A stretch of 63,713 nt of DNA, filler included, from Craspedostauros australis (GCA_030167865.1; 9 parts of 9 records of this genome joined end to end with filler, not necessarily neighbours in it); one strand, 5' to 3'; numbered from the whole stretch's first letter, positions 36,995-58,100 are shown. Numbers and translations: made by a program. The notes: generated by a model not told the origin, from the sequence alone.

Positions 36995-38917
36995 AGTGAA
37001 GTCAGTCCATCCTAGATCAAGAGTGGTGAGAGCTGTGAGTTGACCAATCTCGGATGGAAGCTGCCCAGTGAAGTCAGTCCATCCTAGATCAAGAGTGGTG
37101 AGAGCTGTGAGTTGGCCAATCTCGGATGGAAGACGCACAATGAAGGCATTTTTCTCCAGGCCAAGATGTCGCAAAGCTGTCAATCGACCAATCTGAGAAG
37201 GAAGGGGTCCAGCGAAGTGGTTGGCAGCCAGGTCAAGATGTGTCAATTGTGGAAGTTGATACATTTGTGACGGAAACGCACCTTGCAGTCCCATGTATTT
37301 TAGAGTTAGCTCTGAGAGCATGCTCAACATGCCAATATGACTGAAGATGATACCATCGATCTGTCCGCGAGTGATGAAATTCATTTCCATTGACCATTTC
37401 TCAAGGTGTGAGAGATGATACAGGGCCGGATCGAGCGTGCCCCGCATGTTTCTGTCACCCAAAGCTACTTTTACCACATGACCATCAACGCATGTCACAC
37501 CACCAGAGGAAGATTGCCAGTCGCACACGTCAGCATCTGATAGAAAGCCCATCTTGTCGTTCCAATTGGCTCCATCGAGTGAAAAGTATATGCTCGCAAC
37601 TGCATAGTACTTCAGTAGGCTCATGGTATTGGCTTGTACATCCTCCGCGATCATTGATGTGAGGTATGGGTGATTGCTGTTTGCCATCCAGTCCAGCGTT
37701 CGATGCGCGGTACTGATTGTGCTGGCGAGTATAGCTGTATCGACGAAAGTAGGCTCTTCTTGGAGTATGGGCGCGAGCACCTCCCAAATGGTGAAGAAAG
37801 CATTCGATTGATCGAAGCTGTACGTTGGGTTCGACGAGTGTCGATCACTCGGTTTATGCGTGGGTGTGAGGGTTGGGTTCGACGAGGGTAGATCACTCGG
37901 TGTATCCGTGGGTGTGAGGGTTGGGTTCGGCGAGGGTCGATCACTCGGTATATGCGTGGGTGTGAGGGTTGGGTTCGACGAGGGTAGATCACTCAGTGTC
38001 TGTGTGGGTGTGTGGGTTGGACTTTGTGATGGTCGATCACTCGGTATATCTGAGGGTAGATCACTTGGTATCGCCGTGGGTGTTTGAGTTGGGTTCGACG
38101 AGGGAAGATCACTTGGTATATGCGTGGGTGTGAGGGTTGGGTTCGACGAGGGTAGATCACTCAGTATATGTGTGGGTGTGTGGGTTGGACTTTGTGAGGG
38201 TCGATCACTCGGTATATGCGTGGGTGTGAGGGTTGGGTTCGACGAGGGTAGATCACTCAGCATATGTGTGGGTGTGTGAGTTGGGTTCGACAAGGGTAAA
38301 TCACTCGGTATATCCGAGGGCAGATCACTTGGTATATCCGAGGGTAGATCACTTGGTACATCCGAGGGTAGATCACTTGGTACATCCGAGGGTAGATCAC
38401 TCGGTATATCCGAGGGCAGACCACTCGGTATATCCGTGGGTGTGTGGGTTGGATTTTGTGATGGCCGATCATGGGGGCCATCTGCGGTGGGCGGATTACT
38501 CCTGCTGCCATCTATGTTGCTGTTGCTGCTGTTCTCGCCACTGGGGGAGAACACTACTCCTGCTGCAGTGGCACCGGCTACACCGACGACGAGCAACACC
38601 ACAGTCACAACACCTTTCCAGCTCCATCCTGCAGGATTATCACCATTTTCAGGGACGACCTCTGGAACTGCATCTGGAAGATCGATTTCATTCTCTGAGC
38701 TATCATCAGGGTTGTGTGGATGTCCTGGCGTTTGAGTTTGGAACAGTCGCGAAATCCTATGCAATTCCCTTTGCGTTTCAGCTATCCTTTGTGCTTGCAG
38801 TTCTGCTTCAGACGCGGTTGAGGCAGTGGTAGCAGCGGGGGCAATGGGAGCAGTGGACACAGCAGGGATTGGTGGCGGCAGTGTAGCAGACGCATCACGT
38901 GTTGTCTCTTCATCCAT
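36995..38917 (-). CDS. Type II membrane LRR protein with PSD/PT-repeat stalk (diatom receptor-like LRR family); 3' end cut by the gap
   Basis: ATG 38917; one TM (GVVTVVLLVVGVAGA); stalk; cap motif AHRTLDWM...YAVASIYFSLDGANW...CDW...GVTC; plant-type LRRs (GQLPSEIGQLTALTTLDL). Confidence 0.88.
37830..38460. repeat. Hierarchical coding tandem repeat (12-bp units PSDL/PSDI/PSSN/PTLT/PTHI, grouped into 24- and 48/60-bp units)
   Basis: Recurrent GAGGGTAGATCACT and GTGGGTGTGAGGGTTGGGTTCGAC blocks. Confidence 0.93.
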
Positions 38918-40629
38918 TGTTGGGTATGAATTTGGTTGCGGCTGCGGCTGTGTAGTTGGGCTGTGCGTCGGTCGCACCAGCGACGAAGATGTGAATGGCA
39001 CCTGCGCAACTTGGGCTCTCTCTCTCTCTGTGTGTGTCTCTCGAGATCGTAAGTGGTGGTGGTCACTGGATGATGTTGTTGATGTATTGTGAGGGTGAGG
39101 AAATAAGATGTTTCAAACGATTTCAGGCATGTCAACAAGATCAATCTTGGGCGAGGCAGAGAGAGCAACTTCGCTTCTCTGCAGCAACAATCTCTTGATC
39201 GCACTCATCAGTGAAGTCGTGGTGGCATTTGCACCACGTTTGTCATTTGCGTCCGTGGCGATGATAGTGGGCAGCTGAGGTGTCAACCATCGGTAGGGGT
39301 ACCCTTTCGTACCGTTTCGTACGCATTGGTGCTGTATCGTCCCCCATCGCACACGCTGTACTCGTACCACGCACTCTGACACTCATCCTTCTACTTCCAC
39401 AGATGTTCTTTGCTTTCACGCACACGGACCGAACAGCCAAAGCGGTAATACTCGTCCGCTTTTTTGTTCGCATGCTATGATCGCATGCAAGGTCGCACGC
39501 TCGGAAGGCGATGGGCGGAGTGCGAACTACCAACAATACATCAAGGCAGGAGTCGTCAATGCAAACAGAGAAACAGAAGGCAAGACAGACACATCCGCTC
39601 CTATGATCGCCTACTTGATCGCATGCTTGATCGCACCCTCGGAAGGCGATGGGTCAAGTACGAGTAGCAGAAGAGGTCGGTCGGAGGGCAATGCCAACCA
39701 TGCGAGTACACACCTCTCTGCTGTACACTCTAATCGTATCCACCAGCGACCTCCAAAGGCTCCTTCTGAGTGTTGTGCCGATGACCCTTCCAACATGTGC
39801 TCTGCGACCATGTCGGTGACGATGAGAAAGACTTCCGAAGAAAGTGAGATGATATATTTGATTTGCTGTGTATCTCACCCCGACAACGACCAGTCTCACC
39901 TTCAGCCGTCTCATCGACAAAGAAACCAAACGAAAGCCAACAAAATGAGTCTCCGAAAATTGGCGCCAAACAAGGCAACACATCGGAACAGACATGCAGT
40001 CACAAGCCCATGATTAGACCTCTCTGGACTGCTGAAAGAGCGTGCACGGATACGGCGATGCCAACATGAGGAGGTCACCAGTACTACCTCCAGGTCGCAG
40101 TTGATGCACTCACGATAACACTAGTTGTGGAGTTTTGGCCCCTTGTTGTCACTGGTTTGCTTGCTTTTGGGAGAAACGGCGATTGGATATTTAGAGCTAT
40201 TGTGTGTTTGCTCTCGCTGATCCGTCTTCTACGTCACAGGGANNNNNNNNNNNNNNNNNNNNNNNNNNNNNNNNNNNNNNNNNNNNNNNNNNNNNNNNNN
40301 NNNNNNNNNNNNNNNNNNNNNNNNNNNNNNNNNNNACAACAGAATGTGCCAGGCCAGGACAGCCAACAACACTCCACGTTGACCAGTCTCACAATGGAAA
40401 CCAGCAACATCCAATCGTCTCGGAATACAACGAAGCGCATTGGCAATCTGTACGACGCAGACGACAGTGCTTCGCCAATCACCACAACATCGTCTTCACC
40501 TCGGCTGCCAATCCTGTGAATGATGCATGNNNNNNNNNNNNNNNNNNNNNNNNNNNNNNNNNNNNNNNNNNNNTTAATTAATTAANNNNNNNNNNNNNNN
40601 NNNNNNNNNNNNNNNNNNNNNNNNNNNNN

Positions 40630-41356
40630 GAGCATATACTTTTCACTCGATGGAGCCAATTGGAACGACAAGATGGGCTTTCTATCAGATGCTGACGTGT
40701 GCGACTGGCAATCTTCCTCTGGTGGTGTGACATGCGTTGATGGTCATGTGGTAAAAGTAGCTTTGGGTGACAGAAACATGCGGGGCACGCTCGATCCGGC
40801 CCTGTATCATCTCTCACACCTTGAGAAATGGTCAATGGAAATGAATTTCATCACTCGCGGACAGATCGATGGTATCATCTTCAGTCATATTGGCATGTTG
40901 AGCATGCTCTCAGAGCTAACTCTAAAATACATGGGACTGCAAGGTGCGTTTCCGTCACAAATGTATCAACTTCCACAATTGACACATCTTGACCTGGCTG
41001 CCAACCACTTCGCTGGACCCCTTCCTTCTCAGATTGGTCGATTGACAGCTTTGCGACATCTTGGCCTGGAGAAAAATGCCTTCATTGTGCGTCTTCCATC
41101 CGAGATTGGCCAACTCACAGCTCTCACCACTCTTGATCTAGGATGGACTGACTTCACTGGGCAGCTTCCATCCGAGATTGGTCAACTCACAGCTCTCACC
41201 ACTCTTGATCTAGGATGGACTGACTTCACTGGGCAGCTTCCATCCGAGATTGGTCAACTGACAGCGCTCACCTTGCTTGATCTATCATGGAACAGATTCA
41301 CTCGGCCACTTCCAACTCAGCTTGGTCTCCTCACATCATTGAAAAACCCTCTGTAA
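40630..41356 (+). CDS. 3' part of the same LRR gene on a redundant, inverted contig
   Basis: 40630-41230 is the reverse complement of 36995-37595, then continues with a further LRR to a stop at 41356. Confidence 0.8.
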
Positions 41357-42627
41357 ACTGGTAATTTCACCATGCAAATGCTAGTTGTGGGCCCCACTGT
41401 GGGATTCTGTTGTGCTTTGCAGATAATAGAGCTAAACTAGTACCCACCTTAGAGAGAGAGACTACGAATCATCCGACCCGTCAGCATTCCAGTAGATCGA
41501 ATGAATACTTCACCGGCCCCCACGTTTGGGGAAAGATCCAGAACATTGAAGCAGATCTTTGGAACCCGTGTCAAGGAACCAGAAGGGTTCCGATAACCAA
41601 GCCACTGACACCCACCATTGCCAAAACGCCAACACATGGAAACAGTGCCCCAGCAATGCACATCATCGCCCCTTGTCTCTCACAGAACACAGCCAAGGGA
41701 TCTCGACCCATGGTACTTGGGCTACATGACCCATACACACTGTCACTCAGGACACCACAGGAGATCCTTCCCGCAGGGAAGAACTTTAGCACTAACCTCA
41801 TAATCCGCACGTTTCTTCACCATCTATCAGTATTCTCAATTGACTACTTGTGGAACAGAAGACTCATGTTCGGACCGCTTGCCAATCAAGCCTCTGCCTA
41901 CAGCTATCAACAGCCAAGAAGACAACAGCCATTTCGTTTGGGCTCTATTAGAATTCGCCAGCAACTAAGTGGAAAGTAGTCTGTTCTTTACATGAACTTC
42001 AACTCCTGTCATCTGTGTGCCTGAGAGTATTCGCTTCACATCCTGAGCACCCAAGCCTGTCAGAATAATTCGAAAGAATGTAGGACATGACAACACCAGC
42101 TGGAGAGGTTTGTGGGTGATGAGTCGTGTTCAAATCGACTAGTTCAGTGTGTTGGCAAGTTCCGCTCACGGTAACCTACGATTGTGGAAGATGGTGTTGG
42201 TTGATAGTCGTCTGTTTGCTATTTCATTACTTGGTTACTCCGATCCTCTCGGTGTACACCAGTTGTCTTGCCCGATGCTCTCGGCGCTTCAATCTGTTTC
42301 GTAGATTCAGTCTCCGACTATGAGTCGGTACGTGAGATCCTCTCTCGCTCCTCTCTGTATTCTCTCTCTCTCTCTCTCTCTCTCTCAACATCGTGTGCTC
42401 GTGCTACACAATACTCCGTGTTCGATGCGTACTCCGCATTAGACACTCCGTTTGTTCAGTACTGGTTCCTACTCCATGAGTACTTACCATTTGAAGTTCA
42501 CCTTCAGTATCCATGATCTTCATGGNNNNNNNNNNNNNNNNNNNNNNNNNNNNNNNNNNNNNNNNNNNNTTAATTAATTAANNNNNNNNNNNNNNNNNNN
42601 NNNNNNNNNNNNNNNNNNNNNNNNNCA

Positions 42628-45429
42628 CCATACACCAATATTCATGTCGCAAGCTTCACGAAGCAACAGCTCCACTCATGGATCACTCAACTCCTTCACC
42701 GGCACAACTCCATCGATGTCGACATACCCGTAGCGAGTGGTGACGAAGAAGATGGGGAAGATGAGGAAGATGATGCTCTCACCAAGATCACCGACTACCT
42801 CTTCAAGCGCACAAATGGCAACATCTTCCATTCTGTACAGTTGCTACAAGAGATGGAGCGCAAGAGCATCCTCCAGTATGACCGCATCATGTCCCAATGG
42901 GCGCTGAATGATGAGCTCGATACCGATGAGCTCTCCCAGTTCAGTTCATCATCAACCAATTCAAGGGGTGTCCTCCGTCTCATCTCATCCCAGATGAAGG
43001 CTTTGCCTGTCGCCCTGCAGAAGGCGCTGGCCATCGCATCGTACATCAGATCATCGTTCGATTCTGACTTGCTGCAGATCGTGCTGGACTACGAAGAGAA
43101 ACACAACCGGGCCAGTGACGAGATCATCGAGCACTCCAGAGACCGTGCCAATTCCCACCCTGCACTTGTTGCGGACGAACGCGGCAGCGATCTTTCCGAG
43201 CTGCTGGAGCAAGCCGTGCTCGAAGGCCTCCTGCACAATGCCATCGGCGGAACCACCTACCGCTTCGCTCATGATCGCATTCAGGAGGCAGCCCGGGGAC
43301 TGGTTCCATTCGGAGAGGTCCGCACCAAGCTCCGGCTGCGTGTCGGCCGATGTCTGTGGGAGTTGTGCACGGATACATCACTCAGCCACAGTCGTAGTCT
43401 GCAGGACTCTTCCTCCACAACTCATGCGCGCACTTCGGCTGGCAACGACACCAGTTTCATGTTCATAGCGACGGACCATCTGAACTGTGTGGCCAGCAAG
43501 GATCATTTGGAAACGTTGCAGCGCAATCTTCAAACGGGCGAGCATGCGCTGCAAATGGCCGCTCTATCGCCTGCTGCGACGTACCTCCGGCATGCATCGA
43601 CAGCCCTCCGCAAGCTGAAGGGCGATCCTTGGGAGGACCAGTACGACTTGGTGCTTCGATTGCTCCGCAGTCAATGCGACATCGAGCTCTTGCTTGGCAA
43701 CTACGACCAAGGTTTCGCAATTGGCAACGAGGTTCTGGATCGCGCCACATCCATCGATGACAGGCTTCCTACATATGCCACAATGGGAAGGGCTCTGGGC
43801 CATCAAGGCGAGCACACCCAAGCACTGCGACTGAGCGAGAAGGCCGCGCAGCTATGTGGCGCGTATCCCAAGCGCGGGTACTTGCTTCATGTTGCTCGCC
43901 AGATGATGTCGCTGAGGTCATACTTCCGTCGTGTCTCCAATGAGGAATTCTTGCGACGAACCCCGATTGTGACAAATCCAAAACATGTGACATCCATCTT
44001 GCTCCTGTACAACATAATATCTCGCGGCTTCATCAGCAACGACACGATATCGTGCTTGTTGGGCGTGGTGTGCATGATCAACTACACGAGGCGCGTAGGA
44101 TTTCGCGGGGAGTCAGGCTATAGCTTTTCCATCCTGGCGACAGTGTACAATAGCCTTGGAGATCCCAAGAGCGCTCGGAGATACATCGAACTGGCAAAAG
44201 CGATTGTCTGCAAGGCCAACACTCTCAGCACCGCCGATGGGACGGTGTATTTGATGGCAGCAACATTCATCGAGCCATTCTACAAGTCGCCCTCCGAGAT
44301 CGCGCAAGACTTTCGGACTGCGTACATGGAAGCGATGTCGGCGGGGAATTTCGAAATTGGCATTTTGGGGCGTTTTGGGAGCATCGTCTACGCTTTCGTC
44401 CAGGGTTATCCTCTTGCGACCCTGTTGCCCAACATCGATTCAGTCTTGGAACAAGAAAAAGCGTTGAAGGTCAGCTCGCATAAGCATTCCACCAGAGAGT
44501 ACAGCAACAGCGTCAAGCAGATCGCAGGTACACTTTCGATTGATTGGCAGAATTTCACAAACGTGAATGGGCATGACAACGACAACCACCTCTCCGACGT
44601 CGCTGTCTACTGGAGGCATCTGTTCCTTTCCATTTACCTTGGCAGATATGAACTTGCAGAGATCGTGTATGACAATATGACGGCAACTAAAATGGGAGGC
44701 GACGACTTCACTTCACAAACCACGATCCCACTCTTCATTGGATTGATGGCCTCCAACCGATACTGGCAGACAAAGCAACGCAGGTACATCAAACTGCTCC
44801 GCAAATGCAAAAAACAACTCAAGAAGATATGCGACACCAAGGGCAAGGTCATACGCAATCGGTATCTGCTTCTCTGCGCAGAAACCAAATCCATCACCTC
44901 CAGCACAACAATGCCAACGTACGTCCGCCAGTGCTATGACAAGGCAATCGACCTCTCCCAGTGCAACGGCCAGATCCACGAGGCCGGATTGGCATGCGAG
45001 ATGGCAGGCGAGCACATACTGAGGTCCAGCATCGATGGCGATGATCTGGCAGGTCCTTACTTCACCCGAGCAATGGAGTTCTATCAGGCCTGGGGTGCAG
45101 CTGCCAAGTGTGACGACTTGCGCACCAAACGTGGTAACTACATCAACGAGAGGCAGATCAAGAGATCCGCGATGAACACTACGTGTGGAGGCAAGATGGT
45201 TGAGTTCGATCCCCAACATGGAATGGCGACCAACTTTGATCTGGCGACTGTACATTCCCTGGAACATGCTGGCACGCCCACGATTTCGGGTAGGCACTCA
45301 ACAACAAACGGCACAAAGGCTTCGACGGTGAAGGAAAGTGTTGATGGAGGACCGCACAGCCTCCATGGTGAGCGTGCGGAGGATGTGGATGATGGTGACG
45401 AGGATTCCGTGCTGACGGACATTTCATAA
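42628..45429 (+). CDS. STAND-class AAA ATPase (AAA_16-type) C-terminal region: winged helix + TPR-like solenoid; version A, 5' end in the gap
   Basis: Frame is open from the gap. LFKRTNGNIF (GNPF-like), YRFAHDRIQEAA, ATDHLN, NLQTGE, YDKAI..., HEAGLACEMAG and YQAWGAAAK motifs, as in bacterial Ser/Thr kinase-AAA-His kinase sensors and their diatom relatives. Confidence 0.82.
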   Translation, partial: PYTNIHVASFTKQQLHSWITQLLHRHNSIDVDIPVASGDEEDGEDEEDDALTKITDYLFKRTNGNIFHSVQLLQEMERKSILQYDRIMSQWALNDELDTDELSQFSSSSTNSRGVLRLISSQMKALPVALQKALAIASYIRSSFDSDLLQIVLDYEEKHNRASDEIIEHSRDRANSHPALVADERGSDLSELLEQAVLEGLLHNAIGGTTYRFAHDRIQEAARGLVPFGEVRTKLRLRVGRCLWELCTDTSLSHSRSLQDSSSTTHARTSAGNDTSFMFIATDHLNCVASKDHLETLQRNLQTGEHALQMAALSPAATYLRHASTALRKLKGDPWEDQYDLVLRLLRSQCDIELLLGNYDQGFAIGNEVLDRATSIDDRLPTYATMGRALGHQGEHTQALRLSEKAAQLCGAYPKRGYLLHVARQMMSLRSYFRRVSNEEFLRRTPIVTNPKHVTSILLLYNIISRGFISNDTISCLLGVVCMINYTRRVGFRGESGYSFSILATVYNSLGDPKSARRYIELAKAIVCKANTLSTADGTVYLMAATFIEPFYKSPSEIAQDFRTAYMEAMSAGNFEIGILGRFGSIVYAFVQGYPLATLLPNIDSVLEQEKALKVSSHKHSTREYSNSVKQIAGTLSIDWQNFTNVNGHDNDNHLSDVAVYWRHLFLSIYLGRYELAEIVYDNMTATKMGGDDFTSQTTIPLFIGLMASNRYWQTKQRRYIKLLRKCKKQLKKICDTKGKVIRNRYLLLCAETKSITSSTTMPTYVRQCYDKAIDLSQCNGQIHEAGLACEMAGEHILRSSIDGDDLAGPYFTRAMEFYQAWGAAAKCDDLRTKRGNYINERQIKRSAMNTTCGGKMVEFDPQHGMATNFDLATVHSLEHAGTPTISGRHSTTNGTKASTVKESVDGGPHSLHGERAEDVDDGDEDSVLTDIS

Positions 45430-45528
45430 AGCGAAGCAATTCTAAACGATAGAATAATGCAATACCCAATACAAACAGAGTCAGCCCCAATGTGTATTCT
45501 CATTCATCGGTGCCGACACAATCCAATG

Positions 45529-46662
45529 TCACGGCCACCTGGAAAGATCCAAATTCGGCCAACCCAATCCAGGTCGCGACCAACATTCGATCGTGTCAAC
45601 TCCCGATGGTATGCTGCCAAGGCGCTCCAACCCGCTTTCTCGGAACACCTCATGAGATAGCCCAGATTCTTGCGAATGCTCAAAGGCAAACGGAGCCTGT
45701 ACCAGGATGGTCCGATCGACAAGACCGCTCTGCAAAAACGAGATCGCCGTCCTTGGGCCACCTTCCACCATCACGGATGTGATGCCAAAGTGATCTGCCA
45801 AGTGCTGGATGATTGTTTCTGGAGGCAGAATCGAAGGAAAAGGAGACTGCGTCGGTACGAATGACGATGATCCTGCCGCTGCTTTCGCTGCTTTTGGTGA
45901 TGTTGGGATCCCAACAAGGTGAACATCTGGATATCCATCCACTTGGGTAACTTGGCACTCCGACAACGATGGTGTTGGTCGATCGTCTGATGCATTGAAT
46001 GCCCCTGGAGAAGAAGAAGAATAAGAAGAAGAATAGCAGCCATGATACACGATCGTTCTATGTCCATCTTGAAAGATGTGATACCGCGACATGTCCAACG
46101 ACTGCCTCGAGTCCAATATCACGCGATATGGCTGTTCCGTAGCTGTCACACGACGGACCGTCAGACTGCAATCGTCATCCTCAACCGTCTTGCGACCCAC
46201 CAGCACTGCTTGGCAGTCACGTCGCAATCGATGCACCATGTCCAGGCTATCGCTGCATGTGAAGCGCACGGACACTTCTGCCGATGTGTCCGCCACCGCC
46301 CAATTCTGATCAACGGCGATCTTCAACGTGACACCTTGAACGAAGCGATTGTCAGCATCGTTGGTGTCGCTTTCGTCGTTGTCGCTGTCACTGTCGCTGT
46401 GATCCTCATCGTTGGGAATGGCGGCTGCGCGAAGCAAAGAAGCCGTAGATGGGATTGGACGGACCACCGGCAACACATGCGACAACGAGTATGATCGTCT
46501 CTGTTTGTGCGGCGAGAAGCGAGCGACTGTCGGCCATGCATTAACGTTGATGCTCGTACTTCTGCTCTGCCATGGTGACAGATGTAACGTACGGATGATG
46601 ATGCAGAAGGAAAAGTAGGCAGCAAGGCAGGAAGAGGAACGCATACGTGCCCTCAGTGGCAT
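45529..46662 (-). CDS. Stand-alone RibD C-terminal (pyrimidine reductase, Rib7/DHFR-like) protein, possibly plastid-targeted; copy A
   Basis: VTLKIAVD, VHRLRRDCQAVLVGRKTVEDDDCSLTVR, QPYRVILD, SVMVEGG and SGLVD motifs; no deaminase domain; N-terminal leader. Confidence 0.85.
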   Translation of the reverse strand: MPLRARMRSSSCLAAYFSFCIIIRTLHLSPWQSRSTSINVNAWPTVARFSPHKQRRSYSLSHVLPVVRPIPSTASLLRAAAIPNDEDHSDSDSDNDESDTNDADNRFVQGVTLKIAVDQNWAVADTSAEVSVRFTCSDSLDMVHRLRRDCQAVLVGRKTVEDDDCSLTVRRVTATEQPYRVILDSRQSLDMSRYHIFQDGHRTIVYHGCYSSSYSSSSPGAFNASDDRPTPSLSECQVTQVDGYPDVHLVGIPTSPKAAKAAAGSSSFVPTQSPFPSILPPETIIQHLADHFGITSVMVEGGPRTAISFLQSGLVDRTILVQAPFAFEHSQESGLSHEVFRESGLERLGSIPSGVDTIECWSRPGLGWPNLDLSRWP

Positions 46663-46928
46663 GATTTCAGCAGCAAGAGTGGCAAGAGTGATTGTGGGGG
46701 ATCGTTGACGATGGATGTTGCTTCACGACTTGCCTTGCTTGATTGATCGATTGATTGATTGATTGATTGATTGGTGGATTGGACCTCCCAAACAATGATG
46801 TGATCTGTTGAGTTTGTGTGTGAGAAAATTGGAAGGAGAATTGGATGGCGCCAATCATTGGGGGTGACGAACGATCCATCTTCCACGCCCCCTAATACTA
46901 GGGGTGGATGTCATTCACCCCCTTCAGT

Positions 46929-46940
46929 TTTGGCGCGAAA
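46929..46940. promoter_or_regulatory. Overlapping double E2F-like site TTTGGCGCGAAA (second copy at 51406-51417)
   Basis: Matches TTTSSCGC on both strands. Lies about 270 nt upstream of the reductase ATG and just before an (AACACC)n tract. Confidence 0.4.
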
Positions 46941-47104
46941 CGCAAATCGCTCATTCATCACACACAACAACACCAACACCAACACCAACACCAACACCAA
47001 CANNNNNNNNNNNNNNNNNNNNNNNNNNNNNNNNNNNNNNNNNNNNTTAATTAATTAANNNNNNNNNNNNNNNNNNNNNNNNNNNNNNNNNNNNNNNNNN
47101 NNCA

Positions 47105-49906
47105 CCATACACCAATATTCATGTCGCAAGCTTCACGAAGCAACAGCTCCACTCATGGATCACTCAACTCCTTCACCGGCACAACTCCATCGATGTCGAC
47201 ATACCCGTAGCGAGTGGTGACGAAGAAGATGGGGAAGATGAGGAAGATGATGCTCTCACCAAGATCACCGACTACCTCTTCAAGCGCACAAATGGCAACA
47301 TCTTCCATTCTGTACAGTTGCTACAAGAGATGGAGCGCAAGAGCATCCTCCAGTATGACCGCATCATGTCCCAATGGGCGCTGAATGATGAGCTCGATAC
47401 CGATGAGCTCTCCCAGTTCAGTTCATCATCAACCAATTCAAGGGGTGTCCTCCGTCTCATCTCATCCCAGATGAAGGCTTTGCCTGTCGCCCTGCAGAAG
47501 GCGCTGGCCATCGCATCGTACATCAGATCATCGTTCGATTCTGACTTGCTGCAGATCGTGCTGGACTACGAAGAGAAACACAACCGGGCCAGTGACGAGA
47601 TCATCGAGCACTCCAGAGACCGTGCCAATTCCCACCCTGCACTTGTTGCGGACGAACGCGGCAGCGATCTTTCCGAGCTGCTGGAGCAAGCCGTGCTCGA
47701 AGGCCTCCTGCACAATGCCATCGGCGGAACCACCTACCGCTTCGCTCATGATCGCATTCAGGAGGCAGCCCGGGGACTGGTTCCATTCGGAGAGGTCCGC
47801 ACCAAGCTCCGGCTGCGTGTCGGCCGATGTCTGTGGGAGTTGTGCACGGATACATCACTCAGCCACAGTCGTAGTCTGCAGGACTCTTCCTCCACAACTC
47901 ATGCGCGCACTTCGGCTGGCAACGACACCAGTTTCATGTTCATAGCGACGGACCATCTGAACTGTGTGGCCAGCAAGGATCATTTGGAAACGTTGCAGCG
48001 CAATCTTCAAACGGGCGAGCATGCGCTGCAAATGGCCGCTCTATCGCCTGCTGCGACGTACCTCCGGCATGCATCGACAGCCCTCCGCAAGCTGAAGGGC
48101 AATCCTTGGGAGGACCACTACGACTTGGTGCTTCGATTACTCCGCAGTCAATGCGACATCGAACTCTTGCTGAGCAACTACGACCACGGTTTTGCGATTG
48201 GTGGCGAAGTTCTGAAGCGCGCCGAGCCCGCACGAGACACGCTTCCGACGCGTCTTGCTATGGTGAAGGCTCTCAGTCAACAGGGCAAGAACGCAGAGGC
48301 GCTCCACCTCAACGAGGAGGCGGCACAACTCTGTGGCGTGTATCCAAAGCGTGGGTACCTGCTTTGCCTTACTCGTCAGATGATGTCGCTGAAGTCATAC
48401 TTCCGCCGTGTCTCCAACGAGGAGTTCCTGAGCCAAAGCCCCATGATGATCGACTCTCGACATTTAGCTTCGATGGATATCTTGCGCCAACTCATCCTCC
48501 GTGCATTCGTGTGCCAGGCCTTGCTCTCTGGAGTGCTGGGAATCGCACAGATCATCGCCCTCACGCGAAAGGAGGGGATATGTGGACAGTCGGCGTATGG
48601 CTTTGCTATGCTGGCGATGATTCAGAACACACTTGGCTATTGCGAGAGCGCTAGAAGGTTCGCAAGTTTGTCGAAGGCGATTGCTGAAAAGGTGGGAGAC
48701 AACGACAAGGCTGTTGGAGCGGCATACTTTGTAACAGCTTCGTTCGTTTATCCATTCTATAGACGGCCGGCCGATGTCTTCGCCGATTATCGACGTGCGC
48801 ATAGCCATGCTTTGCGAGCTGGCGATTTCGAGCGAGCCATCTTGAGCTTGTTTGCTTGCACCTTCTACGCATTCATCCAAGGATCAACACTTCCAGATTT
48901 GATGCCTGCAATCAGCCAACTCTTCGAACAAATTCGAATGTACAAGAATGATGCGCACACAATTACAATCACGGAATACACCGACGGAGCGAAACACATG
49001 ATGGGTACCCTTTCAATCGAGTGGCAGAACCTCGCAGATCTGACACGTTTCGAACAGAGCGATGCCCTCACCCAGATCGCCGTCTACTGGAAGCGGCTGT
49101 TCCTCACCACCTACTTCGGAAGGTATGAGGATGCAGAAATAATCTACAAGAAGTTCAAGGCGGCCAAGCTCAAGGTGACCGACTTCACTTCACAGACCAC
49201 GATCCCACTCTTCATTGGATTGATGGCCTCCAACCGATACTGGCAGACAAAGCAACGCAGGTACATCAAACTGCTCCGCAAATGCAAGAACCACCTCAAG
49301 AAGATATGCGACACCAAGGGCAAGGTCATACGCAATCGGTATCTGCTTCTGTGCGCAGAAACCAAATCCATCACCTCCAGCACAATCATGCCAACCTACG
49401 TCCGCCAGTGCTATGACAAGGCAATCGACCTCTCCCAGTGCAACGGCCAGGTCCACGAGGCCGGATTGGCATGTGAGATGGCAGGCGAGCACGTGCTGAG
49501 ATCCAGCATCGACAGCGATGCTCTGGCCAGATCTTACTTCACCCGAGCAATGGAGTTCTATCAGGCCTGGGGTGCAGCTGCCAAGTGTGACGACTTGCGC
49601 ACCAAACGTGGTAACTACATCAACGAGAGGCAGATCAAGAGATCCGCGATGAACACTACGTGTGGAGGCAAGATGGTTGAGTTCGATCCCCAACATGGAA
49701 TGGCGACCAACTTTGATCTGGCGACTGTACATTCCCTGGAACATGCTGGCACGCCCACGATTTCGGGTAGGCACTCAACAACAAACGGCACAAAGGCTTC
49801 GACGGTGAAGGAAAGTGTTGATGGAGGACCGCACAGCCTCCATGGTGAGCGTGCGGAGGATGTGGATGATGGTGACGAGGATTCCGTGCTGACGGACATT
49901 TCATAA
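47105..49906 (+). CDS. STAND AAA ATPase/TPR-like protein, version B, 5' end in the gap
   Basis: Same length and motifs as version A; central region strongly divergent but open and colinear. Confidence 0.82.
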   Translation, partial: PYTNIHVASFTKQQLHSWITQLLHRHNSIDVDIPVASGDEEDGEDEEDDALTKITDYLFKRTNGNIFHSVQLLQEMERKSILQYDRIMSQWALNDELDTDELSQFSSSSTNSRGVLRLISSQMKALPVALQKALAIASYIRSSFDSDLLQIVLDYEEKHNRASDEIIEHSRDRANSHPALVADERGSDLSELLEQAVLEGLLHNAIGGTTYRFAHDRIQEAARGLVPFGEVRTKLRLRVGRCLWELCTDTSLSHSRSLQDSSSTTHARTSAGNDTSFMFIATDHLNCVASKDHLETLQRNLQTGEHALQMAALSPAATYLRHASTALRKLKGNPWEDHYDLVLRLLRSQCDIELLLSNYDHGFAIGGEVLKRAEPARDTLPTRLAMVKALSQQGKNAEALHLNEEAAQLCGVYPKRGYLLCLTRQMMSLKSYFRRVSNEEFLSQSPMMIDSRHLASMDILRQLILRAFVCQALLSGVLGIAQIIALTRKEGICGQSAYGFAMLAMIQNTLGYCESARRFASLSKAIAEKVGDNDKAVGAAYFVTASFVYPFYRRPADVFADYRRAHSHALRAGDFERAILSLFACTFYAFIQGSTLPDLMPAISQLFEQIRMYKNDAHTITITEYTDGAKHMMGTLSIEWQNLADLTRFEQSDALTQIAVYWKRLFLTTYFGRYEDAEIIYKKFKAAKLKVTDFTSQTTIPLFIGLMASNRYWQTKQRRYIKLLRKCKNHLKKICDTKGKVIRNRYLLLCAETKSITSSTIMPTYVRQCYDKAIDLSQCNGQVHEAGLACEMAGEHVLRSSIDSDALARSYFTRAMEFYQAWGAAAKCDDLRTKRGNYINERQIKRSAMNTTCGGKMVEFDPQHGMATNFDLATVHSLEHAGTPTISGRHSTTNGTKASTVKESVDGGPHSLHGERAEDVDDGDEDSVLTDIS

Positions 49907-50005
49907 AGCGAAGCAATTCTAAACGATAGAATAATGCAATACCCAATACAAACAGAGTCAGCCCCAATGTGTATTCTCATTCATCGGTGCCGACACAATC
50001 CAATG

Positions 50006-51139
50006 TCACGGCCACCTGGAAAGATCCAAATTCGGCCAACCCAATCCAGGTCGCGACCAACATTCGATCGTGTCAACTCCCGATGGTATGCTGCCAAGGC
50101 GCTCCAACCCGCTTTCTCGGAACACCTCATGAGATAGCCCAGATTCTTGCGAATGCTCAAAGGCAAACGGAGCCTGTACCAGGATGGTCCGATCGACAAG
50201 ACCGCTCTGCAAAAACGAGATCGCCGTCCTTGGGCCACCTTCCACCATCACGGATGTGATGCCAAAGTGATCTGCCAAGTGCTGGATGATTGTTTCTGGA
50301 GGCAGAATCGAAGGAAAAGGAGACTGCGTCGGTACGAATGACGATGATCCTGCCGCTGCTTTCGCTGCTTTTGGTGATGTTGGGATCCCAACAAGGTGAA
50401 CATCTGGATATCCATCCACTTGGGTAACTTGGCACTCCGACAACGATGGTGTTGGTCGATCGTCTGATGCATTGAATGCCCCTGGAGAAGAAGAAGAATA
50501 AGAAGAAGAATAGCAGCCATGATACACGATCGTTCTATGTCCATCTTGAAAGATGTGATACCGCGACATGTCCAACGACTGCCTCGAGTCCAATATCACG
50601 CGATATGGCTGTTCCGTAGCTGTCACACGACGGACCGTCAGACTGCAATCGTCATCCTCAACCGTCTTGCGACCCACCAGCACTGCTTGGCAGTCACGTC
50701 GCAATCGATGCACCATGTCCAGGCTATCGCTGCATGTGAAGCGCACGGACACTTCTGCCGATGTGTCCGCCACCGCCCAATTCTGATCAACGGCGATCTT
50801 CAACGTGACACCTTGAACGAAGCGATTGTCAGCATCGTTGGTGTCGCTTTCGTCGTTGTCGCTGTCACTGTCGCTGTGATCCTCATCGTTGGGAATGGCG
50901 GCTGCGCGAAGCAAAGAAGCCGTAGATGGGATTGGACGGACCACCGGCAACACATGCGACAACGAGTATGATCGTCTCTGTTTGTGCGGCGAGAAGCGAG
51001 CGACTGTCGGCCATGCATTAACGTTGATGCTCGTACTTCTGCTCTGCCATGGTGACAGATGTAACGTACGGATGATGATGCAGAAGGAAAAGTAGGCAGC
51101 AAGGCAGGAAGAGGAACGCATACGTGCCCTCAGTGGCAT
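50006..51139 (-). CDS. RibD C-terminal reductase-like protein; copy B (same translation as copy A)
   Basis: Translation identical to 45529-46662. Confidence 0.85.
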   Translation of the reverse strand: MPLRARMRSSSCLAAYFSFCIIIRTLHLSPWQSRSTSINVNAWPTVARFSPHKQRRSYSLSHVLPVVRPIPSTASLLRAAAIPNDEDHSDSDSDNDESDTNDADNRFVQGVTLKIAVDQNWAVADTSAEVSVRFTCSDSLDMVHRLRRDCQAVLVGRKTVEDDDCSLTVRRVTATEQPYRVILDSRQSLDMSRYHIFQDGHRTIVYHGCYSSSYSSSSPGAFNASDDRPTPSLSECQVTQVDGYPDVHLVGIPTSPKAAKAAAGSSSFVPTQSPFPSILPPETIIQHLADHFGITSVMVEGGPRTAISFLQSGLVDRTILVQAPFAFEHSQESGLSHEVFRESGLERLGSIPSGVDTIECWSRPGLGWPNLDLSRWP

Positions 51140-51966
51140 GATTTCAGCAGCAAGAGTGGCAAGAGTGATTGTGGGGGATCGTTGACGATGGATGTTGCTT
51201 CACGACTTGCCTTGCTTGATTGATCGATTGATTGATTGATTGATTGATTGGTGGATTGGACCTCCCAAACAATGATGTGATCTGTTGAGTTTGTGTGTGA
51301 GAAAATTGGAAGGAGAATTGGATGGCGCCAATCATTGGGGGTGACGAACGATCCATCTTCCACGCCCCCTAATACTAGGGGTGGATGTCATTCACCCCCT
51401 TCAGTTTTGGCGCGAAACGCAAATCGCTCATTCATCACACACAACAACACCAACACCAACACCAACACCAACACCAACANNNNNNNNNNNNNNNNNNNNN
51501 NNNNNNNNNNNNNNNNNNNNNNNTTAATTAATTAANNNNNNNNNNNNNNNNNNNNNNNNNNNNNNNNNNNNNNNNNNNNTCAATCTGCCAAACCACGTAA
51601 GCAGAATTCGGGCGTCAACGTTTCCGAATCACAACGAAAGCGTCAGAACGAAGGCGGCCACGTTGCGGTGATCTTGGACACCACAAACATCCCACGCAGA
51701 ACAGCAGCGGACCTCCATTTGAATGGCTTGCAACACCACCACAAGCACACAACCCAATCATCGATCTGCTTTGCCCAACCATACGAACGTACAAAGCGCT
51801 GACAACGACACCCCCATCATCAACTCCACCCCACTCCACCCCACTCAGTAACCTGAGCATCCACACCATCTCTGCCCTACCCAAGCTTCAGACCACAGAA
51901 GAAGCAATACAGCGACTACAGATCAGACCAGCACCTCAGATTCACTGCGACGCTCAAGTCCCCACC

Positions 51967-52086
51967 AACGTCAACAACAACGTCAACAACAACGTCAACA
52001 ACAACGTCAACAACAACGTCAACAACAACGTCAACAACAACGTCAACAACAACGTCAACATCAACGTCAACTCCAACATCAACGTA
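51967..52086. repeat. 12-bp minisatellite (AACGTCAACAAC)n just upstream of the NTPase start
   Basis: Seven perfect and three degenerate units; reverse-complement copy at about 53523-53615. Confidence 0.95.
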
Positions 52087-52107
52087 GAAACCAAACCCAG
52101 AACCACC

Positions 52108-53422
52108 ATGCTCTCTCCAAGCCTCATGATCGTGATGACAGGAACTATGATGGCAATGGCGATGGCAGCCATGTCTCCTGTGATGGGATTCACCATCCCC
52201 CAACCGTTGGTTCCACGGCCATTGCAGCCATTCAGGTCTGGCTCCACCCCTTCGGTGTCGTCCTCGCCATTCCTTGCGCAACTGCGTCGTGGTCAGTGCC
52301 AACATCATCACGATGGACTTCACCAACGTTGGCACCCCGGCTTTCGCATGGCCGCACCCTCCACCAATGAGGCCGAATCCACCGGTGTTGACGCGCCGCT
52401 CAATGTGACCAGCTACGATTCTGTCTTCAAGACCTTCGACTTCTGGACCATCAAGGATGATGGCGATGTCATCAAGATGCTGAAGACGTTGCCGAAGCCC
52501 GACGAAAGCGTCATCAAGGACGCAATCAACAAAATGAATGTAACAGGTTCAGATGAAGACAAGATGAGCGCATGGGAGGTTGATTGGCTCAACAGAACGG
52601 TGGACTTCCGAAAGGAGATCATCGATAAAGTTGAAAACAAGGGCAACACGGAGGAGGGAGTACAAATGTCCTGCGAGGGCTATGCCAAGCTTCAAAAAGA
52701 CCACCTCCTCGCCCAATGGCTCTACAACGATGGCAATAAGGGCAACTCACAATACGCATGGAAGTCGATCAAGGGTCTCGGTGGACTCGATAACCCAAAA
52801 GTGGATCTCCGCGAATCGGTACTGGAGAGCCTCGAGAGGCTCTTCACCGCTGTACGGGAAGGCACAACGCATTTTCTTCGCCGCATGAAATATGGCACTG
52901 CCACAAAAGTAGCATACTACGTCGGCGAATGCAATTTCCGACATATGGGCGACAAACATGGAATCCCCCAAAGAGTGCATCTCACCCAATATAGGGAACC
53001 GGCAGCATCCAGCATTGTCCGTGTCTTCTTTTCCGGCAGCGGCACAGGCAAGACAGTCGATTTGGCCACAAGTGCAGAGTCAAGAGATGCTGTCATCACT
53101 CTGATGTACGTCGCAGAGAATGACGTAGCGACGGCGCAAGCAAGCGAAGCTCGGACGAATCAGAGCCGGGCTTATTTGAAGAAATGTATGGATGATCACT
53201 TCTTCAAAAAGAACGGCGAGGTGCTATCAACGATCGTAAACACGGTGCAGCAGCGGTTGCGTGCACTCGATGCGAAGAAGCAACGCCTGAGAGACGATAA
53301 AGGCAACACGACTGGAAACGAAGAAGACCCGAAGGTGGAGGACGACAGGATTCGGATAGTGTTTGCCATTGATGAAGCAAGGTACTGTCCCAATCTTGCG
53401 AAAGAGGTCATTCGAAACTATG
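52108..53422 (+). CDS. P-loop NTPase with bipartite (signal + transit-like) leader; 3' end in the gap
   Basis: Leader MLSPSLMIVMTGTMMAMAMAAMSPVMG/FTIP; Walker A-like VFFSGSGTGKT; Walker B IVFAIDEA. Confidence 0.7.
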
Positions 53423-53522: not shown

Positions 53523-54002
53523 GTTGACGTTGTTGTTGACGTTGTTGTTGACGTTGTTGTTGACGTTGTTGTTGACGTTGTTGTTGACGTTGTTGTTGAC
53601 GTTGTTGTTGACGTTGGTGGGGACTTGAGCGTCGCAGTGAATCTGAGGTGCTGGTCTGATCTGTAGTCGCTGTATTGCTTCTTCTGTGGTCTGAAGCTTG
53701 GGTAGGGCAGAGATGGTGTGGATGCTCAGGTTACTGAGTGGGGTGGAGTGGGGTGGAGTTGATGATGGGGGTGTCGTTGTCAGCGCTTTGTACGTTCGTA
53801 TGGTTGGGCAAAGCAGATCGATGATTGGGTTGTGTGCTTGTGGTGGTGTTGCAAGCCATTCAAATGGAGGTCCGCTGCTGTTCTGCGTGGGATGTTTGTG
53901 GTGTCCAAGATCACCGCAACGTGGCCGCCTTCGTTCTGACGCTTTCGTTGTGATTCGGAAACGTTGACGCCCGAATTCTGCTTACGTGGTTTGGCAGATT
54001 GA
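53523..54002 (-). repeat. 480-nt inverted copy of 51580-52059 (probable contig overlap)
   Basis: Reverse-complement match; both copies abut gaps. Confidence 0.9.
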
Positions 54003-55474
54003 CGACGTCACGTTTGACAAAGCTCCGGCACTTTGCTCGACATGACAGAATTCTCGTATTTGACGCGTTCGTGGCCAGCGTTCATTCTCTCGTATCGACG
54101 GACAGGCGCGAACAGGTTATTGGTGCCGACCACTTGGATTCTGACGAACTCTATGAGCCCGATCAGTGAGTCGACCAACACTTTGAAATGGACATTCTAA
54201 CTTTTCATCTGCGATATCCAAACCAAGCACATATTTGTAATCCTTATAATCTCTTTATACATAATTAACCGTTACATTTTTTGTTAGGTCCTTATTTTAA
54301 AAAATAAGGACCCACTTGAGTGAACGAAGGTGCAGTCGCGCCTAGTCGTGACTCAGATTTTTATAAAATTTAAAATTACATATAAAAACAAAATCTAGAC
54401 CACCGTGCGATCTTATCCATATAAAAATGGTCTTCATCCGACCTTTGCTTCAAGAGTTATACACCCTTATCTACCACGCACAACGCCGTGTTATTTTTCC
54501 TCCTCAAATTTCGGAAATGGGTCTTGGTTGTTCGTGACTTAATATTTTCGATGGTGTCTTTTCGGTTAATTACGGTTATATTTTGGCGATATGCACCTCG
54601 TCAGCGTTTCTTCCCATCGCAACGTCACTATCTTGATCTATTAATGATGGGCATTTCATTGCGCTATTCTCTGGTTTCCGCAGTTGGTTGTCTCGCTTCT
54701 CCTGCAGCTTCTTGTGCATGCGAATTGCCTTGTTCGTCACAGGCTACGTGCTCTTCGTCGCCATCCTGTTTGTCAACAACCCTCCATTGGTATCATCCAT
54801 GCCATCGACAAAAAATAATCAGGGCGATCTATCCAATTCAACTATCATCTGCGTTTTTCAACTTGTTCATGAAGATCTACATCAACCATTCCGTTTTTGA
54901 CGATGGCCACCCCAGACTGCACACAAAGGTACTACTCCTTTTTCATGACGGACATGGCGTTATCTGTCATGCATTCGATGGCCACAATGATGCTGACAGC
55001 GACGGTAGTGTTGATTGGGGCAGCGTTGACATAGACAGCTGTGATGACGCCCAGGATAGCGTTGTCAGTGGCTATGGTCGCCACCACGGCAACGAAGATG
55101 GTGGTGCTAGCCACAGCGATGCTGTTGTCAAGGACGATGGTGGTGATGGCAACAAAGATGGTGATGGGGAAAGCAACTTGAATGATTCCGTCACGGAAGG
55201 CAATGGTGATGGCAATGAAGGTGGTATTGGCGAGAGAAACAGTGGTGATGATGGCAGGTGACAGCTTTCTCTGTACTTTTTACCTCTTTTCAAATCATAT
55301 TAGTCAAAATACTGGTTGGAGATTGTCCTCGAACAACTCACAATAAAAGAACAAGAGCTCTGACCAGGGCATGCAACAATGGGCCAATACGTCTCCAGTA
55401 GTTACTGGTGCACTTTGACAGATTAAGAGTCGTGGTTTACCAACAAGCTTATCACCTTTACAACATCGACCACC

Positions 55475-58100
55475 ATGGCAAGACCGATCAACAACCGAGC
55501 TTTGACAGCCGTAATCAAGGAACTTGCTGATCTTGATGACAAAGAAATGGAGTTCATCAACAAGCAACTCAGAAGGATCGAACGCGCCATCAAGAGTCCA
55601 GACAAAAACACCATCCAAGCGCTGGCTCTCTCACCAACACTCACCTCGATCAACATTGAGAACATCCTTCGCATTTTCGCTTTCGCGAAAGAACGGCAAA
55701 TCGACCAAGCAACCGATTGGGCGGCCATCAACGAGTTCACTACAACGACCGGGTATGAGGTACCAACCATCAAGACTCCTGTCGCCAGCAAGGCAACCCA
55801 AATGTGATTGAAACTCGCAATGAAGGAAGCCGCCAATCGTGAACTCGCCAAGGCAATGAGCTGCAAGGTTGTGGTACACTCACCAAGACGCCCACTGGAA
55901 GTACGCCGATCGCCATCAATGCCAACTAGATGGAAGTATGACAAGTCGCCCTGCTAGAGGCGGAGCCATTCAGCAGACTCAACATCGAATGGTACCAGTG
56001 GAAGACCGACTTCCACCGCCAGCTGGTCATGACCAGATACGCGGCATACATGAAGGAGGAGAGACCAAATGACTACTGCAAAGATGTCGACACCCAGTTC
56101 TACGCAGCGCTCAACTCGAAAACGTGCCAAGGACACGCTAACTACATGATCCTCGCGGAAAGAGATAGCAGTCATGCAGCCTTCCAGGCCCTCATCCGCA
56201 CATACGAATTCACTGAGAACAGGGCCGACATTGTGGCAACAGAGGAAGGCAAACTGTCCAAACTCGTCTACGACGGATCTGGACCGTTCAGCGCGTTCGT
56301 CAATGACTTCTCTATGTCTGTTCAGGCAATAGAAGACAACGGAAAGACAATGAGCGACAAGCAGAAGACTGCAAGATTCTTCCACAACAATAGCGATGAG
56401 CGATTCACTAGTATGGTCTCTCGCCTCCAAGAGACAGATGAGTCCTTCAATTAGGTCCGCGAGACTCTCATGAAGCACGACAAGGTCCTCTCCAACGCGG
56501 AGATCGACAGATCTCCATGGCGCAATCGACGCGCACACCAGAATGACGGGCGAACGGACTGCAAGCGACCGTTTGAAGCTACATCCGGGGATCGCAAGAA
56601 ACCGTCGATGTACCGACTTCCAGATATTGTATTCAGAAGCTGTCTGACCCCAGCACAAGTGTTTGTGGTGGAATCCTCGCGTCACTTCCGCGAGACAGGA
56701 GAACTCATCAGCGAGGAGACGTTCAAGCGCAACAAACCCGCTGAGTTCGCGAAGACCCAGGAGCATCATGCTCAACGCAAACCCAACAAGTGCGCCAGAT
56801 TTGGCAACAAGACCGATCGAACCAAGAAGTACAGACCATGTGACAACAGCTCCTGAAAACCAACAACAGGTGCTTCGCGCCAGCAGTTGGAGGTCATCAC
56901 ATGCATCAAGGACCAAGACAGTGTAGACTTGACACAAAAGGCCGCGGAGAGCGGGCCAGGGCATACAATCCCGGATACGCTACGAGAGTCGCGTCCAAGA
57001 AGCACCGACCCGCATACAGAGCACACGATTCGACGGGCAAGAGTAACGAATAGTAGCCACGGCAATATCATTCTAGACTCAGGCACGGACAGCGACATTG
57101 TTCATGAGTCTGGATGGGTGGTAGCCCAAAATCACCAGCAGCAGTTCCACCCCGAGCGGCGACAGTGGACTCGCAAATCGAGACGTTTCCAATGGTTCTC
57201 GTGGTGGCAGCGTACAAGCCGCCAGAAGGCGGAGTGATCCTCATCAAGGCATATTACATGGCTCTCGAAAAGCATCCATGGCAGATGGAGTCGCTGCTCA
57301 ATACACACCACATGCGCACATCTGACATCAGCATCTACGATCAGCTTCGACAATACGACAGGCAGCAACGGATACCATCTGGTGACATCAGCATCCTGCT
57401 GGCCAATCACGACAGCAATACCCTGTGCATCCCAATTCGTAAACCGACAGCTCGCGAGCTAACTCAAACTAAGAATATTACTATATGTGACAGACACAGA
57501 CGCCTTCGGAGATCCCACACCAGTGTTGACTTCAACAAAGTCTTCCGACATCTCCCACAACAGGTGGTCGAGAAAACGAAAGCAGTATCGACGCAGCTGG
57601 CCGATACTCCCATCGAGGCGGAGTCAAGACCCATCCCGAGGCAGTACCGTGCGCAGCAAGCGGGCGCGCTACAGCCACACCGAATCGAGGGAAGAGTGGA
57701 AACTGATCCATTCTTCTCCACGGTCCCATCCATTTGACACCACAAGTGCTTCCAGCTCTTTGCACACAGCGAATTTAAATTCATCTGGGCAAAGCCGCTC
57801 CGACGAGAGGCGATGGCGCCAGGGGCGCTCACCAATTTCATTGTGCAGGTCAGGGCACCTGACCTACTCTTCTTGGACTACTCACAGGTCCAAGCTGTCA
57901 AAGAATGGAAGGCTGTGACGATGCGGTACATGATCAAGCACTCCTTCACTGCTCCCATGAATCAGAATCATAACCGAGTGGAGCGGCCGATCGGCGACAT
58001 CAAGCGACATGCATACAAATTGCTTTGGGCGGAGTCCGTGCCACTCACCTTCTGGTGCTACGCGGTACAACACGTCATCAATGTATCGAACTACACGGGA
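55475..58100 (+). mobile_element. Decayed CoDi-like Copia element (gag - protease - integrase; RT/RNase H absent)
   Basis: Gag-like WYQWKTDF...AAFQALIRTYE...LVYDG; protease IILDSGTDS; integrase VETDPFFS...APDLLFLD...TAPMNQNHNRVERPIGDIKR...PLTFWCYAVQH. Several in-frame stops (56452, 56854, 57735) and at least two frameshifts. Confidence 0.85.

Follow-up and report, generated by a model that had tools for sequence, protein, structure and literature searches.

How does a diatom genome come to hold two versions of one gene that agree letter for letter at both ends and are deeply diverged in between? The question is raised by a stretch of DNA of 63,713 nucleotides (nt), filler included, from Craspedostauros australis (GCA_030167865.1), hereafter the window, in which nine contigs are joined by N44-TTAATTAATTAA-N44 spacers. 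Two of the nine, contigs A and B, each carry one version of a long open reading frame (ORF) related to ATPases of the STAND family with a sensor of TPR-like helical repeats. The pattern is genuine and out of the ordinary, and the diatom STAND gene that shows it is uncharacterised. Alleles and paralogs are both in play; of the two, we favour alleles. The contigs and the parts into which their comparison divides the gene are as follows, with residues given as amino acids (aa) of the ORF and with dS and dN standing for synonymous and nonsynonymous substitutions per site.

Contig A: 42626..47002, no strand assigned, 4377 nt, edges formed by N44-TTAATTAATTAA-N44 spacers.
Contig B: 47103..51479, no strand assigned, 4377 nt, ends as in A, at an offset of +4477 in the position-wise comparison.
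STAND-family ORF, version A (P0004): 42628..45429, plus strand, 933 codons and a stop, 5' end cut by the contig edge.
STAND-family ORF, version B (P0005): 47105..49906, plus strand, length and frame as in version A, 5' end open at the contig edge.
Left shoulder: 43624..43722 in A and 48101-48199 in B, plus strand, 9 of 99 nt differing, dS 0.31, dN 0.05.
Core cassette A: 43723..44703, plus strand, aa 366-692, 403 of 981 nt differing from B, 146 of 327 aa identical, about 17 helices of the predicted sensor sub-domain.
Core cassette B: 48200..49180, plus strand, aa 366-692.
Right shoulder: 44704..45055 in A and 49181-49532 in B, plus strand, 20 of 352 nt differing, dS 0.14, dN 0.04.

Compared position by position, the two contigs differ by 432 mismatches and zero indels, the outermost mismatches being those at 43624/48101 and 45055/49532, in agreement with the initial annotation, which had described two 4377-nt contigs with the same ends and with divergence limited to 43624-45055 and 48101-49532. 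No mismatch was found over the 998 positions of the left flank or over the 1947 positions of the right flank, which comprises the 3' end of the ORF, a 99-nt spacer and a convergent gene for a RibD_C-domain protein. Between the flanks, the nucleotide difference changes in steps, from 0% to 5–9% in the shoulders and 41% in the core, and then down again. The right edge of the core is sharp (44702/44703), with 10 of 12 bases differing in 44691-44702 and only 1 of the next 108. Both frames run through 933 codons with no internal stop or frameshift, so the earlier statement that the versions have no stops, no net indel and equal length also holds. A hand count of 24 identical residues out of 70 in one stretch lies below the core-wide 146 of 327 and is consistent with the most diverged stretches of the core. 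At the protein level there are 194 residue differences, all within aa 333-810. The pattern is real and is neither chance nor noise.

The cores look like two old, constrained and apparently functional versions rather than products of rapid diversification, judging from how their substitutions are distributed. Differences fall mostly at third codon positions (179, against 134 at first and 90 at second positions), and the 205 transitions are nearly balanced by 198 transversions, as is expected close to saturation; all 12 substitution types are seen. By the Nei-Gojobori method, dS is 0 in the flanks, and the core has a proportion of synonymous differences (pS) of 0.66, a dS of about 1.6 (effectively saturated), a dN of 0.45 and a dN/dS of about 0.28. 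No sliding window of 30 codons with finite dS exceeds a dN/dS of 0.61, although such a two-sequence average can hide a few selected sites. Residues shared by A and B are enriched at columns conserved over 68 homologues (53 of 81 in the top quartile of conservation versus 25 of 82 in the bottom quartile; Mann-Whitney p = 1e-5). No tandem or dispersed repeats were found in 43624-45055, and BLAST of the contig against itself gave no self-hit. The term 'hypervariable', used in the initial annotation, is therefore not supported, if it means fast or positively selected change, for a core with a dN/dS of about 0.28, saturated dS, shared residues at family-conserved columns and no internal repeats. 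One patch inside the core, aa 411-440 (43858-43947, AYPKRGYLL...SNEEF), has a lower pS than the rest (0.38 versus about 0.69; Fisher p = 0.007, for a patch chosen post hoc among about 11 windows), a hint of a younger secondary conversion tract or of nucleotide-level constraint.

Three ways of making such a cassette can be set aside on these data. Repeat shuffling is ruled out, as there are no repeats in 43624-45055. A diversity-generating retroelement is ruled out as well, since all 12 substitution types occur rather than adenine-only changes and no repeat copy was found. A foreign origin of one core is ruled out by native codon use and by the GC content at third codon positions (GC3); neither core looks foreign, because its GC3 (0.65 and 0.62) matches that of the flanks (0.64–0.66).

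The two cores are also each other's closest relatives. BLASTP of core A against core B gave a single ungapped alignment with 45% identity over 324 aa and 307 bits, while the best outsider to either core among 161 family proteins reached 159 bits at 30% identity. A quick tree search on 69 rows of the core segment joins A and B as sisters, with a value of 100 in the Shimodaira-Hasegawa-like approximate likelihood ratio test (SH-aLRT); they are separated by 1.06 changes per site, and every other row lies at least 2.27 away. Because BLAST and the tree agree in making the cores mutually closest, the split is placed within this lineage. Judged by sequence divergence, it is nonetheless as deep as the splits that separate many of the family's 50%-identity clusters from one another. 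An alignment free of indels is uncommon without being exceptional: among 77 family pairs with 38–60% identity in this segment, 9 have no internal gaps, and A/B is one of these.

Predicted structures place the diverged segment in a definable part of the protein. The ORF begins with a post-NTPase (nucleoside triphosphatase) arm or winged-helix part (about aa 1-275); the TPR-like solenoid follows at aa 276-853, and the protein ends in an acidic tail that is disordered. AlphaFold models of versions A and B have the same helix layout with predicted local distance difference test (pLDDT) values of 84.4 and 84.5 and predicted template modelling (pTM) scores of 0.77 and 0.76, although the two models are not independent, as their alignments have homologues in common. 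Helix-strand-strand modules at aa 46-93 and 189-223 are followed by paired helices at about aa 276-853, with pLDDT mostly above 90. Foldseek matches to the model are TPR proteins, among which the STAND-TPR protein 6mfv ranks 42 (E 1.3e-3) and Avs3 ranks 43. With VIA-align, the best matches were Rap (4gyo_A; Z 17.2, root-mean-square deviation (rmsd) 5.7, 344 residues aligned, model residues 293-691), NprR (5dbk_A; Z 14.5, rmsd 6.3, 345 aligned, model residues about 284-691) and MalT domain III (1hz4; Z 13.8, rmsd 5.0, 341 aligned, model residues 284-691). The structure-matched sub-domain stops at aa 691, one residue short of the last core residue, aa 692; the core (aa 366-692) is thus predicted to make up most of a discrete sensor-like sub-domain resembling MalT domain III and Rap/NprR. 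In MalT and in the Rap family it is this sub-domain that holds the ligand, and the Rap, NprR and PlcR proteins are TPR receptors with the ligand in the groove. Versions A and B are identical or almost so in the arm, in the helical cap at the C-terminal side (aa 693-853) and in the acidic tail. The earlier proposal that the swapped part is the sensor is thus supported by the models, where the core coincides with most of the TPR-like sensor sub-domain.

What kind of STAND protein this is had to be read largely from its homologues. Pfam gave only a borderline TPR_12 match for version A (30.4 bits against a cut-off of 30.1) and, as the sole match for version B, a sub-threshold TPR_10. A word-index protein search, covering proteins of up to 1633 aa, found relatives at 30–37% identity, several of them with AAA_16. 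An index-free search showed the family to be large: 162 cluster representatives passed E ≤ 1e-30 and as many as 7050 passed E ≤ 1e-3, although no representative exceeded 50% identity. Full-length matches to the STAND ORF reached E 4e-112; shorter protein fragments (30-512 aa) gave no match at E ≤ 0.001. We scanned 35 homologues for domains, 30 of them full-length and taken in rank order from the best 42 matches, together with five long distant ones. AAA_16 (PF13191) was present in all 35. In the 30 near homologues it was the sole kind of Pfam domain, apart from overlapping P-loop and TPR co-hits. The five long distant homologues have a protein kinase in front and a histidine kinase or cyclase behind, with GAF in all five and TPR_CHK1 in two. 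A weak NACHT co-hit (29.7 bits), overlapping AAA_16, was seen in one of the 35.

The Walker A and B motifs of the homologues (GxxGxGKS and FLDDLQW) align just upstream of the first residue of the window protein. The contig edge falls after the NTPase domain, which lies off the contig, and the NTPase part is not encoded on any of the window's other contigs either. Residues 1-330 of the window protein match the conserved post-NTPase arm, with TNGNIFH in place of the family's GNxFF (TxGNxFF-like) and with YRFAHDRIQ kept. A sequence search of the PDB found no chain beyond generic P-loop or repeat matches. The most fitting name for the gene product is a STAND ATPase of the MalT type (AAA_16) that has a TPR-like sensor, with the NTPase seen in homologues only. 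The assignment to the STAND-type ATPase family made in the initial annotation is supported by AAA_16 in 35 of 35 homologues, by the conserved post-NTPase motifs and by the TPR-like solenoid of the model. Its description as 'NLR-like' holds only in the broad STAND sense, because the NTPase of the family is AAA_16 (MalT-type) and not NACHT or NB-ARC.

The right flank of both contigs supplies a landmark outside the STAND gene, and the following features belong to it.

RibD_C-domain reductase-like protein gene (P0003): 45529..46662 in A and 50006-51139 in B, minus strand, Pfam PF01872, E 1e-23.
(ACACCA)n microsatellite: 46964..47002 in A and 51441-51479 in B, no strand assigned, right end of both contigs.

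The microsatellite is a likely cause of the assembly break at the right end of the contigs. The RibD_C gene lies 99 nt downstream of the STAND ORF, is convergent to it and is identical in A and B. Its protein matches a diatom transcriptome protein (UniRef/MMETSP) at 372 of 377 residues, and the truncated taxon name of that protein, 'Crasp', would fit the raphid diatom genus Craspedostauros; further named matches are mostly from diatoms (Cylindrotheca, Fistulifera and a Bacillariaceae metagenome-assembled genome), with one from Nannochloropsis, and the nearest Atlas cluster is mainly Bacillariophyta. The public sets contain three variants of this protein. Their differences are confined to the last 52 residues (45529-45690), the end facing the STAND gene, and the first 325 residues are identical in every public member that covers them. 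Eukaryotic genes for Ndc80/HEC and PIG-X lie elsewhere in the window. The spacer DNA, the convergent gene and a 30-kb multi-gene contig in the window show that the sequences are genomic DNA, which rules out mutually exclusive exons or transcript isoforms as the source of the two versions.

A further sequence type came from X1, a public run with contigs of a relative, in which a single contig of 2163 nt covers 44702-46728 only. X1, with 0.29 of the words, was the sole sequencing run found, and the listing contained no RNA run. Its contig deviates at 39 of 446 letters in the shoulder and at 37 of 1498 in the flank, which makes it a third type beside A and B. Among the differences listed, five sites that distinguish A from B could be compared: two of them agree with B, and the other three have a letter that neither A nor B has. 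In X1 the 83 nt corresponding to 45148-45230, within the disordered tail, are of equal length and too diverged to align, and the adjoining parts have 91% and 97.5% identity. The X1 contig starts at 44702, without a loose end and no more than one base from where the core ends on the right (44702 is also the site of the last core difference). A branch at the same place in the relative could produce this, but as a contig end in a single run it does not count as evidence. Metagenome contigs were scanned twice, with the A and B alignment and with the sequence of the right shoulder and tail, and neither scan detected a relative. X1 and the variants of the neighbour gene show the locus to be variable in public data; they suggest several alleles if they come from other strains, or more than one locus if any of them comes from the same clone as the window.

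How, then, did two such versions come to share their surroundings? We infer that A and B are two deeply diverged haplotypes, i.e., alleles, of a single locus, and that the raphid diatom carrying them is diploid, a reading that we hold with evenly balanced confidence. The assembler would have printed both haplotypes as the arms of a bubble, along with the neighbouring graph nodes that they share. In favour of one locus, both arms enter the same neighbour gene and spacer, and the two contigs are consecutive in the file; other pairs of contigs in the window have identical ends of 601 nt and 480 nt, like neighbours in a graph. In addition, the B arm is a true mosaic with 5–9% diverged shoulders of its own, reaching 99 nt and 352 nt past the core, and therefore the molecule carrying core B is truly near-identical to A just outside the core. 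The stepwise divergence profile fits two long-standing sequence classes, as a polymorphism or as a pair of genes, around which recombination or conversion acted again and again as far as the edges of the sub-domain. The product would be a MalT-type (AAA_16) STAND ATPase, with the haplotypes carrying anciently diverged and equally constrained forms of the sensor sub-domain at aa 366-692. By analogy with MalT and Rap/NprR, a ligand bound in the sensor groove would release autoinhibition and allow the ATPase to oligomerise, much as an inducer in the sensor is described to free the ATPase of MalT-type STANDs for oligomerisation in the cited sections of two papers (PMC6468293, PMC4381067). The two versions might then sense different ligands through the same signalling chassis.

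Several points weigh against alleles of one locus or against this account of their function. The identical flanks may be one collapsed graph node printed twice, in which case heterozygous sites in the flanks could be lost; such a single node is conceivable because the other contig pairs of the window also have identical printed ends and because one and the same microsatellite terminates both A and B. For alleles within a single species, a dS above 1 is extreme. In the assembly of the diploid diatom Fragilariopsis cylindrus, haplotypes that have diverged are likewise represented by separate sequences among homozygous DNA, but they are whole regions with much milder divergence (PMC5634323), whereas here a single 1.4-kb block within one gene reaches a nucleotide difference of 41% and the rest is identical. 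The third sequence type in X1, if it came from the same strain, would mean a third copy and thus paralogs. Concerning function, no effector domain is known, the N-terminus being off the contig and the nearest homologues carrying no other Pfam domain; Z values near 13–14 in helical repeats can mean a common arrangement only; and ligand binding by the diatom sensor is suggested by fold similarity.

If A and B are instead paralogs at different places, which we think possible but on the unlikely side, they would stem from a recent segmental duplication that included the RibD_C neighbour, or from older copies with flanks homogenised by conversion. Conversion would then stop at the sensor block, or the block would have been imported from a third, diverged member of the family, and the flanks would have been collapsed and printed twice. 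The large size of the family (162 representatives at E ≤ 1e-30 and 7050 at E ≤ 1e-3) makes donors and duplicates plausible, and the stepwise divergence also fits nested conversion tracts. Three sequence types over the shoulder and flank (A, B and X1) and three variants of the 3' end of the neighbour gene point the same way, as does the left contig end, which lies inside the gene with no simple repeat there and fits a branch from further copies. Yet the other 55 kb of the window contain no second copy or donor, the cores are mutually closest rather than tied to different known subfamilies, and a duplication would need at least 1.9 kb of neighbour gene and spacer to have remained without a fixed difference, unless the assembler collapsed the differences. 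The initial annotation had offered the alternatives of assembly-bubble alleles and homogenised paralogs, and this remains the right pair of options.

An assembly artefact, in which one core comes from an unlinked old paralogue or from another strain or organism in the culture and has been threaded between alien flanks, seems to us improbable. The assembly is fragmented, its contigs have shared printed ends, A and B are of exactly equal extent and their right end is a microsatellite, all of which would suit an artefact. However, the B arm does not jump directly to identity with A but passes through shoulders of its own with 91% and 94% identity over 99 and 352 nt, and this near-identity to A outside the core speaks against a crude join to an old paralogue from an unlinked place. 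The two versions also agree exactly in frame, length and helix layout, and codon usage and GC3 are native. At the other end of the range, alleles of one locus could be part of a larger system of ancient sensor allele classes, two or more in number, in raphid diatoms, which would predate the split of strains or species and be kept by balancing selection at a recognition locus, while recombination time and again removed divergence up to fixed edges. The confinement of deep divergence to the block between recombined flanks would accord with this (dS of 0, 0.31, about 1.6, 0.14 and 0 along the gene, where the identity of the flanks may be graph collapse), but we consider such balanced classes rather unlikely. 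We are just as doubtful about the part of this proposal that concerns the role of the locus, namely recognition of a pathogen, a partner or self versus non-self on a bacterial-type chassis that is not NACHT or NB-ARC.

With alleles of one locus as our favoured reading, the gene can be set beside known systems. Its closest relatives, by the sequence searches above, are uncharacterised proteins of AAA_16 and helical repeats from diatoms and other marine eukaryotes. In architecture, the closest are MalT of E. coli and PH0952 of Pyrococcus (6mfv), and the closest folds of the swapped part are Rap/NprR and MalT domain III. We know of no two-version sensor in MalT. MalT and PH0952 (PMC6468293, PMC4381067) share with the diatom protein an AAA_16-type NTPase (here known from homologues), an arm or winged helix and a TPR-like superhelical sensor. 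Unlike them, the diatom protein is eukaryotic, and its C-terminus has only a helical cap and an acidic tail where a DNA-binding domain or some other known output domain might be expected. Bacterial and fungal proteins with the order Pkinase, AAA_16, TPR_CHK1, GAF and histidine kinase or cyclase are distant sequence relatives over the part from AAA_16 to TPR; unlike the 30 nearest relatives of the diatom protein, they carry kinase, GAF and output domains. The peptide-pheromone receptors Rap, NprR and PlcR (RRNPP) give the best structural match of the sensor sub-domain, but they have no NTPase and only 8–12% sequence identity to the diatom sensor, so that the likeness is one of fold and no membership is claimed.

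Other eukaryotic STAND proteins offer partial parallels. The candidate NB-ARC-TPR receptors of Ectocarpus are likewise stramenopile STAND proteins with a variable TPR part, and the passages of PMC3341825 referred to here describe an NB-ARC NTPase, one exon per repeat, exon shuffling and diversifying selection. In contrast, the TPR region of the diatom protein lies in one uninterrupted frame of 933 codons, with no repeats at the DNA level and a dN/dS of about 0.28. Fungal het/NLR genes (HET-E, HET-D and NWD) resemble the diatom gene in having a STAND sensor in few, very old classes with recombined flanks, according to the cited part of PMC4986451. The variability of fungal NLRs involves near-identical internal repeats and positively selected sites, whereas neither is seen in the diatom gene. 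Deeply dimorphic alleles in few, very old classes are also familiar from het-c and from MSP-1 of Plasmodium. A search of the open full-text literature found no report of a diatom STAND- or NLR-type receptor with allele classes and none of a two-class STAND sensor.

Several other features of the window deserve mention. Contigs c3 (36995-40529) and c4 (40630-42525) have an identical 601-nt end in opposite orientation and many tandem units of 72 nt; an ORF at 36947-39112 on the minus strand of c3 has LRR and PT-repeat matches in Pfam, and the pair looks like a single LRR-repeat gene split by the assembler at its repeats. Contigs c7 (51580-53422) and c8 (53523-58390) have an identical 480-nt end, also in opposite orientation, which is thus a second sign of shared graph nodes printed in neighbouring contigs. 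A 1460-codon open frame at 32169-36551 on the plus strand of contig c2 (30586-36894) matches RVT_1 (E 3e-10) and is probably a retrotransposon. A run of 93 N at 40243-40335 in c3 and a single N at 29665 in c1 are gaps or masked bases inside contigs and not joins.

The ways in which diatoms perceive pathogens, mates or kin are very poorly understood. If A and B are paralogs or a collapsed repeat, the gene is an ordinary member of an expanded family, accompanied by a note on the assembly. If they are alleles, the locus would be a compact case in which a single chassis bears either of two old sensors, the edges of the exchanged part are known and the gene next door can serve as an anchor, and it would allow long-term balancing selection and ligand specificity to be checked in ecologically dominant algae.

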